Positions 3,970 through 14,481 of a DNA stretch of 64,000 nt are shown here, one piece after another. The notes beneath the pieces are model-generated. The model was not told the DNA's origin, did not search any database, and saw nothing but the letters and a program-made list of their open reading frames with translations. Origin of the DNA: Escherichia coli (GTDB lineage: Bacteria; Pseudomonadota; Gammaproteobacteria; Enterobacterales; Enterobacteriaceae). Each line of letters starts with the position of its first letter. Positions within the stretch are counted from its first letter, which is position 1. The stretch lies in the NCBI RefSeq assembly GCF_003018255.1, contig NZ_CP027440.1. The stretch is one strand, 5' to 3'. Position numbers and translations under genes: made by a program.

Positions 3970-3986
3970 GCTTACCGCATCCGACA

Positions 3987-5451
<1,465 letters not shown>

Positions 5452-5618
5452 TGTTCCTCCTCACCCGCAACCACTCCGGGTGTTCAATAAGGCTATCCCT
5501 TAATTGTGCATGCTGTTGCGACTATGCACAATTAAGGGATACGTCCTGGTGCGGGACTGTCGGTTATTTAACTTTGCGGGTATTATGCTTCGCATCAAAA
5601 ATGAAGGGAGAGGAAAAG

Positions 5619-11598: not shown

Positions 11599-12546
<948 letters not shown>

Positions 12547-12757
12547 TTAACGACCTCAATTCCACGGGATCTGGTGGCGTTTAAAGTGTGTGGGCATTTT
12601 ACGGGAAGGTTACATTACTGTAAACATGATTAAATTCCTGTTACTTGGATTTGGCTTACAGGTCACATATGTTGCAAAACATATCAGGTTGATTTTAAGA
12701 AGCTGTTGCAAAAGGGCGTTATAACAAAAGGGGAGTGCAGAAGGAGTCTGGGCGGGC

Positions 12758-12773
12758 AATTGGTATAACCAAT
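12758..12773. promoter_or_regulatory. PdhR-type operator (AATTGGTATAACCAAT; ATTGGT-N3-ACCAAT inverted repeat) in cyoA upstream region
   Basis: Inverted repeat read from sequence about 210-230 nt upstream of cyoA ATG; PdhR is a known repressor of the cyo operon. Confidence 0.6.
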
Positions 12774-13005
12774 GCGAAATAAAACAATTATTTAACAAAT
12801 AATTATCATTAAGGTGACAACTGGGTAGTGGGAAAATAAAGACTCATTAGCTGAATCGTGTAAGAAAAATAGAATTCATAAATGGCGTCAATAATTTCCA
12901 GACGCTAAGCCGCACAAAAGAACAAATATTAATAAGCGATGCTGATGTTTATTTAGCCGTAATAATTACGGCGAGTGATTACTACGGCTAAATAATATTT
13001 ACAGA

Positions 13006-14481
13006 TTACGTCAGATGCGTTTTTCGTAGCGCCAGATAATCCAGTAAACCACCAAGCACGACGCCAGAAAGGGCGACTAAAACCCCGACTTCCAGCAGAG
13101 CAGGCAGGAAAGAGAAGTGCGTCAAATCCAGCGCGTCCATCGTCAACAGCAGTAACCACACGGCCAACAGGCTGACGCCCGCCGCCAGTGTCCACATGGC
13201 AAAGGCATAACCTGCCGGATATTCGGTACGGGAGATAAAGTTATCATTTACTCGTGTATATTCAAGCGTCTGGCGACAAACCAGCAGCAAGATAAGCCCT
13301 GGTACGGCAGCGGCGACGGAGAATAGATAGAATGTCGACCAGCCGTGTGCTTCAACAAACCAACCCGCCACGGGGCCGACATAAACTCGCCCTACAGCAG
13401 AAAGCGCTGAGAGCAGGGCAAATTGAGTAGCGGAAAATGACTTATTACACAGCGTCATTAACAGCGCGACAAAGGCTGATGTACCCATCCCGCCACAGAG
13501 GTTTTCGAAAAAGACGGCTGCGCCCATGCTGTAGAGATGCTTATCAGTAATCGACAGCAGCCAGTAACCGGCGTTAGATGCACCTTGTAAAATGCCGAAA
13601 ATCAGCAGTGCACGGAACAGCGACAGGCGCTGCATCAAAATCCCACCGTACAATGCGCCAACAATGGTCGCCAGTAAGCCAAGCGTTTTGTTAACCACGC
13701 CTACTTCACCCGCATCAAACCCGACGCCGCGAATCAAAAACGTGGTTGTCAGGCTCATAGCGAATGCGTCGCCCAGCTTATACAGCACGATAAGAAGCAA
13801 AATAAGCCAGGCATTATTGCGACCAAAGAAATCTCGCAGAGGTGCAACAACCGCTTGTTCCAGCGTTTTGGGCACAGGAATGGTGTCGGTGGGTTCTGGT
13901 GCAAGCAACGTCGCGATAATACAGGGGATCAACAGCGCCGCCATCAACCAGTACATGCCCTGCCAGCCCAGCCATTTATCTGCCAGCCACAGGGCTAAGC
14001 CGCCGGAAACCAGCATCCCTAAACGGTAACCCAGCACGCTGATTGCCGCGCCCGCACCACGTTCTTCTGCCGGGAGCACATCGGTTTTCCACGCATCGAA
14101 GACAATATCCTGGGAGGCAGAGCAAAAAGCGATCACCACCGCCAGTGCCGCCATCCAGCGGAGCTGGGTGCCTGGTTCGAGAAAACCCATCGCCGCAATG
14201 GCGACTAATAACAGAATTTGCGTGGCGAGCAGCCAACCGCGCCGCCGCCCGAAAAATGGGGGCGTGTAGCGGTCCATCAGTGGTGACCAGAGGAATTTAA
14301 AAACGTAAGCCTGGCCTACCAGAGAGAAGAAACCAATGGTTTTGAGATCGATATTCTCGACCGTCATCCAGGCCTGTAAGGTGCCGGACGTCAGGGCGAG
14401 CGGTAGCCCGGAAGCAAAACCCAGGATCAGCAATATGGCTGAACGCGGCTGTTGAAAAATACGTAAATATTGACTGGACAT
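13006..14481 (-). CDS. ampG: muropeptide permease (MFS)
   Basis: Track ORF 491 aa, MSSQYLRIFQQPRSAILL... Confidence 0.95.
   Translation of the reverse strand: MSSQYLRIFQQPRSAILLILGFASGLPLALTSGTLQAWMTVENIDLKTIGFFSLVGQAYVFKFLWSPLMDRYTPPFFGRRRGWLLATQILLLVAIAAMGFLEPGTQLRWMAALAVVIAFCSASQDIVFDAWKTDVLPAEERGAGAAISVLGYRLGMLVSGGLALWLADKWLGWQGMYWLMAALLIPCIIATLLAPEPTDTIPVPKTLEQAVVAPLRDFFGRNNAWLILLLIVLYKLGDAFAMSLTTTFLIRGVGFDAGEVGVVNKTLGLLATIVGALYGGILMQRLSLFRALLIFGILQGASNAGYWLLSITDKHLYSMGAAVFFENLCGGMGTSAFVALLMTLCNKSFSATQFALLSALSAVGRVYVGPVAGWFVEAHGWSTFYLFSVAAAVPGLILLLVCRQTLEYTRVNDNFISRTEYPAGYAFAMWTLAAGVSLLAVWLLLLTMDALDLTHFSFLPALLEVGVLVALSGVVLGGLLDYLALRKTHLT

Follow-up and report, generated by a model that had tools for sequence, protein, structure and literature searches.

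The tail of the ampG mRNA of Escherichia coli most likely carries a stable hairpin of about 20 bp that is AU-rich and lacks a following U-run, as predicted by RNA folding of the DNA that separates ampG from the cytochrome bo3 operon cyoABCDE. We tentatively propose, with somewhat less than even confidence, that this hairpin serves as a U-less stem-loop of the 3' untranslated region (UTR), which would mark or protect the end of the ampG mRNA and separate ampG from the cyo control region. The window analysed here is a continuous stretch of E. coli DNA of 64 kb, in which ampG occupies 13006-14481 (-) and cyoA 11599-12546 (-), leaving a spacer of 459 bp. By BLAST, this intergenic region is 100% identical to that of strain 2014C-3338 and 97.3% identical to that of MG1655, and the RefSeq records inspected carry no feature at the hairpin. 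Across genera the spacer measures 450-480 nt and is a mosaic of blocks conserved between genera, of which the hairpin lies closest to ampG; in the window it is 403-449 nt upstream of the cyoA ATG.

The hairpin is encoded by one imperfect inverted repeat with arms at 12949-12969 and 12975-12995, each of 21 nt, 90% complementary and 5 nt apart; no inverted repeat in the whole window ranks higher. An earlier, sequence-only reading of this DNA had described a 37-mer at 12954-12990, which was located there with its letters exactly as quoted, and within it a perfect palindrome, GCCGTAAT-A-ATTACGGC, which was likewise found at 12956-12972. That reading had also noticed a second arm able to pair with the first: the pairing exists, but its extent was missed, as it belongs to the larger repeat of 12949-12995. 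The features to which the text refers are as follows.

12949-12995 (-): whole hairpin, ampG-sense UUAUUUAGCCGUAGUAAUCAC-UCGCC-GUAAUUAUUACGGCUAAAUAA.
12975-12995 (-): 5' arm on the ampG transcript, holding the near-invariant CGU(A/U)GUAAUnAC.
12970-12974 (-): apical loop, UCGCC in sense, whose sequence varies freely between genera and within E. coli.
12949-12969 (-): 3' arm on the ampG transcript, holding the near-invariant GnAAUnAU(A/U)ACG.
12957-12987 (-): conserved core (inner stem and loop), sense CCGTAGTAATCAC-N5-GTAATTATTACGG.
12956-12972 (no strand): perfect 17-nt palindrome, restricted to the E. coli lineage; as a hairpin, -9.0 kcal/mol.
12986 (no strand): polymorphic base; the window has G, whereas the six aligned E. 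coli strains (K-12, O157 and four more) have A.
13006-13008 (-): TAA stop codon of ampG, followed after 10 nt by the hairpin in the transcript.

In the window the predicted helix comprises 18 bp, a 1x1 A·C internal loop, a further 2 bp and the 5-nt apical loop, and the flanks on the ampG transcript (5' UUAUUU and 3' AAAUAA) both lengthen it. The minimum free energy (MFE) of the ampG-sense (-) RNA is -23.3 kcal/mol (z = -7.5), whereas dinucleotide shuffles of it give -7.5 +/- 2.1 and none of 200 folded as stably; RNA of the + strand folds at -25.3 kcal/mol (z = -6.3). Among the orthologues, 76 distinct 51-mers have a median z of -6.2. The second-strongest hairpin in the window lies elsewhere, at 5494-5541, as a perfect 18-nt inverted repeat, TATCCCTTAATTGTGCAT-N12-ATGCACAATTAAGGGATA, with no U-run after it, in a divergent intergenic region beside a 303-aa open reading frame (4540-5451, -).

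The hairpin is a single-locus element. The region is present in 5424 of 5426 complete E. coli genomes by BLAST, at one locus in each; the second place reported per genome for a 66-mer query most likely reflects a match of the palindrome to its own opposite strand. Only 116 of the 5424 genomes are at least 99% identical to the window's version of that 66-mer. Within the window, a motif search permitting up to 3 mismatches returned a single copy, and a covariance model built from the collected sequences, which matches the hairpin at 12947-12997 (-) with 63.9 bits, found a single site in each of the related loci, which total 540 kb. A degenerate pattern of the 19-base core had 62 matches in metagenome contigs, of which 54 are the ampG-cyoA locus (53 with ampG and/or cyoA adjoining, and L106, in which no gene was detectable, counted by its Enterobacter-type flanks alone). 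The other eight have no complementary stem flanks, and their number is about that expected by chance for a pattern of this size. The same degenerate core had no match in viral contigs, and a phage attachment site was rejected on that count. With one locus per genome, the element is therefore neither a dispersed repeat nor a regulon motif.

The sequence-only reading had suggested looking for the motif in other enterobacteria, and there it proved to be kept across many genera of the Enterobacteriaceae. An AmpG search of genome contigs yielded 80 species loci in this family, 79 of them with a complete ampG 3' end, and a hairpin with the core CCGTTGTAATnAC-N5-GnAATTATAACGG lies 14-30 nt past the ampG stop in 51 of the 79, in genera that include Salmonella, Citrobacter, Klebsiella/Raoultella, Enterobacter, Kluyvera, Leclercia, Trabulsiella and Yokenella. 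The distance from stop to hairpin is greater at five loci (L015, L019, L031, L050 and L082), where an ERIC-like or other insertion lies in between. L019 has an ERIC-like element (3976-4110) and L015 and L031 an insertion of about 270 nt (3976-4250), each between the ampG stop and an intact hairpin; farther downstream in the same spacer, E. coli EC529 carries ISApl1 (L008, 440-1414). The covariance model also detects diverged hairpins in Atlantibacter, Pseudocitrobacter, Huaxiibacter and others. Despite ampG-cyoA adjacency, the hairpin is lost or degenerate in several lineages, e.g. Buttiauxella, Pseudescherichia and Cedecea, and most lineages without the motif bear another stable hairpin directly after the ampG stop.

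Selection acts on the pairing of this element and not merely on its sequence. In a gap-free alignment of 52 sequences, on which covariation was computed, standard pairs fill 81.5% of cells, compared with 27-55% when the partners are slid; double changes occur at 10 of 20 pairs, and the covariation score of 0.185 (0.094 +/- 0.009 in shuffles) was matched by none of 500 shuffles. Covariation is free in the outer stem (columns 3-11 with 41-49), which brings the complementarity to 18-23 bp and whose arms read UUAUUUAGCC/GGCUAAAUAA in E. coli, GGUUAUUUCCC/GGCGAAAUAACC in Enterobacter, UAAUAAGCC/GGCUUAUUA in Klebsiella and AUGGUGACC/GGUCAUUUGCUA in Yokenella. RNAalifold with default scoring returned no consensus structure for the 52-sequence alignment, a failure due to the Kluyvera-like rows and the scoring scheme: with RIBOSUM scoring the full hairpin is recovered (-24.6), and removal of eight Kluyvera-like rows recovers a partial hairpin. 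For a 19-genus alignment of the region, default RNAalifold recovered this hairpin alone (-13.9), with no second conserved structure between it and the downstream U-rich block.

Almost no variation is seen in the inner stem, CGTTGTAATnAC-N5-GnAATnATAACG: 11 of its columns are invariant and 9 nearly so, a constraint that suggests an added sequence-specific partner, either protein or RNA. In this stem a G·U wobble between columns 16 and 36 occurs in 48 of the 52 sequences and is never replaced by G-C or A-U, and at columns 15 and 37 (12983 and 12961 in the window) E. coli shows a compensatory swap from U-A to A-U. Remodelled and stronger hairpins are found in Pseudocitrobacter (L087) and Atlantibacter (L066, L067 and L076). 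In the Kluyvera clade (L020, L023, L024, L027, L037, L040 and L061; about 3989-4050) the 5' arm has taken a new partner farther downstream, e.g. TACGCTGTA...TGCAGCGTA, and the ancestral 3' arm, GTAATAATAACG, is conserved though mostly unpaired; judging from these alignments, structure alone cannot explain its retention.

As no terminator intervenes between the ampG stop codon and the hairpin, which are 10 nt apart, RNA polymerase leaving ampG must transcribe the hairpin. What follows it does not resemble a termination signal: a terminator scan of 12400-13200 called no site, no T-run follows the hairpin on either strand, and the tail reads UAAAUAAAC. The judgement of the sequence-only reading that this is not a canonical intrinsic terminator, made from the absent U-run, therefore stands, as does its statement that the element is not a named one: a scan against Rfam 15 (E<=10) gave only sub-threshold noise from miRNA models (15-16 bits, with gathering thresholds of 41-93), no RefSeq feature covers the site, and the hairpin sequence was found in no paper of the literature searched. 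The 100 nt downstream contain 16% C, 15% G and 41% U, which is not C-rich and has no evident rut-like signal; C exceeds G in 24 of 49 loci.

Mapped transcript ends bear on the site through the Term-seq study of Adams et al. 2021 (PMC7815308), taken here from the portion of its tables that was accessible. The base of the hairpin was calibrated to about 452,015-452,023 on the minus strand of K-12, equivalent to about 12940-12949 in the window. The accessible tables list no 3' end at 451,530-452,393 (NC_000913.3, minus strand), and a prefix search of them gave no 452,0xx or 451,9xx entry, so that, within that portion of the data, no dominant 3' end was called at the hairpin (Adams 2021, PMC7815308). 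The study does describe "ampG int", an ORF-internal sRNA with its 3' end at 452,393 (PMC7815308), which maps to 13319 (-) in the window, inside ampG and 313 nt upstream of its stop, and is separate from the hairpin; the only bicyclomycin-sensitive site that the same accessible material reports nearby is at 453,334, also inside ampG. The missing end is weak, though negative, evidence, because ampG is weakly expressed and the minus-strand thresholds, in the part of the source consulted, look high. The sequence-only reading had named two outcomes that would speak against its proposal, and they diverge: the accessible tables indeed list no ampG end at the structure, but conservation, which was to have been lacking, is strong.

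Under the reading that we tentatively prefer, the hairpin would fold in the 3' UTR at the end of the yajG-ampG transcript, and transcription would stop diffusely, probably by Rho-dependent termination, in the untranslated U/A-rich DNA downstream. Exonucleases working from 3' to 5' would then trim the RNA back to the base of the hairpin or stall there, by which the end of the ampG mRNA would be both defined and protected, and ampG transcription would be kept out of the dense cyoABCDE control region just downstream. A class of this kind is documented, namely the U-less protective stem-loops at the 3' ends of Rho-dependent E. coli transcripts (Dar & Sorek 2018, PMC6061677). The ampG hairpin resembles its members in being stable, in lying in the 3' UTR just past the stop, in lacking a U-rich tract and in preceding a long untranslated stretch; it differs from them in having no steady-state 3' end in the accessible Term-seq tables and no C-rich, rut-like region downstream, and in being unusually long, AU-rich and conserved in inner-stem sequence across genera. 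In favour of this reading, canonical terminators stand in place of the hairpin at L065 and L074, and other stable hairpins mostly do so in lineages without the motif. The constraint on the inner stem goes beyond what a barrier to exonucleases needs and is a point against this reading. Confidence in a protective 3' stem-loop is held below even because no 3' end is mapped at the site, the downstream DNA is not C-rich and the inner-stem constraint demands more than a barrier.

Among the alternatives, the one that survives best, unlikely though we consider it, is a palindromic DNA operator with half-sites CGTT[G/A]TAAT[C/T]AC and a 5-bp spacer, bound by a dimeric or tetrameric regulator of cyoABCDE (or of ampG). 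Such an operator would act at a distance, some 360 bp before the cyoA core promoter, to which it might loop. The choice between DNA and RNA can be approached through mismatches, since their type is irrelevant in duplex DNA, whereas in RNA G·U pairs and C·A does not. The 76 distinct 51-mers together contain 136 G·U pairs when read in the ampG sense and 71 in the antisense, and the stabler fold is the sense one in 52 sequences and the antisense one in 23 (means of -18.5 versus -15.9 kcal/mol; Wilcoxon p = 2e-5, a value that is optimistic because the 76 sequences are related). The difference is widest in remodelled hairpins, at -32.8 sense and -24.0 antisense in Pseudocitrobacter L087 and at -33 to -35 sense and -23 to -24 antisense in Atlantibacter. 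At 12986, likewise, the A allele, the major one in E. coli, pairs as U·G in ampG-sense RNA but leaves the + strand with a C·A mismatch. A one-sidedness of mismatches and MFE would have no bearing on duplex DNA, and complementarity of 18-23 bp, with an outer stem that covaries between genera, extends beyond any operator; these properties speak for a hairpin in the RNA transcribed in the ampG/cyo sense rather than for a DNA operator. They are suggestive and not decisive, because a typical inner stem has one wobble and one mismatch per strand.

Several observations favour the operator. The cyo control blocks nearby are no more invariant than the inner arms, the asymmetry between the half-sites is fixed as G/A, with the 16/36 pair never Watson-Crick, and the Kluyvera clade retains GTAATAATAACG in a largely unpaired state. 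The hairpin is missing from all four loci that have no cyoA within 2.5 kb downstream (L065, L074, L086 and L088), and the want of an RNA 3' end in the accessible tables of Adams 2021 (PMC7815308) is also what an operator would predict. Against it, E. coli, L087 and Atlantibacter alter conserved arm bases while preserving the pairing, and there is no further copy of the motif in the window, in the 540 kb of related loci or in other metagenome contexts. Nor can a known factor be assigned. For CpxR, a known direct regulator of cyo, binding at the cyo promoter region has been reported, and its box has the consensus GTAAA-N5-GTAAA, a direct repeat (PMC8831704), to which the hairpin, with GTAAT-N8-GTAAT, is a misfit; the only intergenic matches with at most 2 mismatches are at 12610-12634, in the core promoter, and a CpxR box at the hairpin was rejected. 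Motifs of Fur, ArcA, CytR, IHF, GntR-type regulators and TyrR, compared by eye, do not fit the hairpin either. An RpoS SELEX peak lies inside ampG, and HprR/YedW binding has been reported 'within' the cyo operon, not at the hairpin.

The remainder of the spacer gives the context in which such a site would act. The cyoA core promoter, TTTACA-17-TAAAAT (12596-12634), is fully conserved across genera and is the sole promoter-like site in a scan of 12400-13200; a CpxR-like GTAAACATGATTAAA (1 mismatch) on the + strand overlaps its -35 region. Farther upstream, a conserved AT-rich block at 12782-12812 contains the direct repeats TTGTTAA and TTGTTTT (TTGTTA-type, 11 bp apart) and may be ArcA-like. 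A nine-base block on the cyo strand, CGATTCAGC at 12850-12858 (+), is invariant in 19 of 19 aligned genera and presumably resembles a Cra/FruR half-site. Nearest to the hairpin, 25-35 nt downstream of it, is the conserved block ATATTTGTTGTTTTGTGCGC...CTGGAAATTATTG, in cyo-sense also given as ATATTTGTTnTTTTGTGCG...CTGGAAATTATTG, at 12889-12929, which in Buttiauxella-like lineages is replaced by a U7-8 run and GGAAAATTATTT. The PdhR box AATTGGTATAACCAAT at 12758-12773 is conserved across genera, matches the consensus at 13 of 14 positions and is identical in sequence to a published gSELEX site; among these neighbouring control blocks it alone is a confirmed factor site.

The constraint on the inner stem may also be read at the level of RNA. 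The hairpin would then be a dedicated cis element at the ampG/cyo boundary, whose GUAAU-containing inner stem and fixed G·U would be read sequence-specifically by a protein or an RNA, so as to control the fate of the ampG mRNA or to insulate or couple the peptidoglycan-recycling permease operon and the cytochrome bo3 operon. We regard this as distinctly unlikely.

Cleavage by RNase III is quite improbable in our estimation. In this alternative the AU-rich helix of about 20 bp would be cut, which would either remove the 3' protection of ampG, in a retroregulation like that of sib, or split ampG read-through from cyo RNA. RNase III needs about 20 bp of near-continuous double-stranded RNA, and the E. 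coli helix of 18 bp, a 1x1 loop and 2 bp is near that length; many genera lengthen the helix to 20-24 bp, and the helix is rich in A and U and has few G-C pairs. Cleavage would, besides, account for the missing stable 3' end at the hairpin. However, the helix is only 11-14 bp in several genera, e.g. at L048, L049, L053 and L063, which is too short by the usual rule, and strict sequence conservation is not a known requirement of RNase III. In the literature searched, no paper joins ampG and RNase III, and none links ampG to terminators, ProQ or bicyclomycin at this site. The nearest parallel is the RNase III hairpin lambda sib, which the ampG hairpin resembles in being long, near-perfect, downstream of a coding region and of about the length that RNase III needs; it differs in that the helix is too short in several genera, the context is not that of a phage (with no match in viral contigs) and cleavage by RNase III is putative.

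A hairpin-dependent terminator or pause site that works without a U-run, possibly with NusA/NusG or Rho, and that insulates the cyo promoter region, is to our minds very unlikely. The hairpin does sit where a terminator would, at the end of a transcription unit, and at two of the loci where synteny with cyoA is broken (L065 and L074) canonical terminators, each a hairpin with U6-7, stand after ampG in its stead. In six Buttiauxella loci a run of U7-8 is conserved about 100 nt past the stop, in L073 with a long stem abutting it, and Klebsiella-type tails are moderately U-rich. Set against this, at most 2 U occur among the 8 nt past the core stem in 38 of 51 genera, and a simple terminator scan made no call in 12400-13200 of the window, nor at the U-run of L032 or L056; the accessible Term-seq tables likewise give no 3' end at the hairpin. 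We know of no established case of U-less intrinsic termination by E. coli RNA polymerase. The comparison with canonical intrinsic terminators runs along the same lines: the ampG hairpin shares with them its place at the end of the unit but has no U-tract, its stem is AU-rich instead of GC-rich, and its flanks extend the helix where a tail would be. With neither a U-rich tract nor, in the accessible tables of Adams 2021 (PMC7815308), a precise RNA 3' end at the site (the low expression of ampG being a caveat), a canonical intrinsic terminator was rejected.

The last alternative, a two-state RNA switch formed by mutually exclusive hairpins as the sequence-only reading had envisaged, is exceedingly improbable: the E. 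coli 3' arm is self-complementary, so that a local 7-bp hairpin could form first during transcription, and the 5' arm of Kluyvera has two possible partners, but the palindrome hairpin at -9.0 kcal/mol competes with a long hairpin at -22.7 (window) or -20.5 (K-12) and has an equilibrium probability of about 0, Rfam gives no riboswitch match, and the location in a 3' UTR offers no downstream expression platform. The palindrome, moreover, is not kept: genera other than E. coli read GTAATTATAAC at its site, which is not self-complementary, and in the divergent E. coli strain AHM8C160RI two loop substitutions shorten it and leave the long stem intact. Its hairpin being both weak and confined to E. 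coli, a thermodynamic two-state switch is unsupported. From the aligned orthologues, the 17-nt palindrome would seem to be a by-product of the change at column 37 together with the local loop sequence. A riboswitch-like RNA, for which two conserved and energetically competitive structures are required, was rejected for the same reasons.

REP/BIME elements that stabilise mRNA, e.g. at malE-malF, offer one further comparison for the protective stem-loop that we prefer. Like them, the ampG hairpin is intergenic, palindromic, free of a U-run and 3' of a gene, and it could block exonucleases. REPs are GC-rich and present in hundreds of copies, whereas the ampG hairpin is AU-rich and strictly single-copy; an assignment to REP/BIME or to another dispersed palindrome, which would require many copies per genome, was rejected on the single locus found in each E. 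coli genome.

The finding has no obvious bearing on a long-standing open question; its interest lies in what it would say about this boundary between two operons. If the hairpin does protect and delimit the ampG mRNA, it would be one more well-conserved and unannotated example of U-less 3' stem-loops, and it would explain how a weakly expressed permease operon avoids running into a respiratory promoter that ranks among the most heavily regulated in E. coli. The more interesting point is that an inner stem and a G·U that stay fixed over many genera suggest a specific partner; were the hairpin a dedicated element read by such a partner, it would represent an RNA motif family conserved across the Enterobacteriaceae at a single locus per genome.
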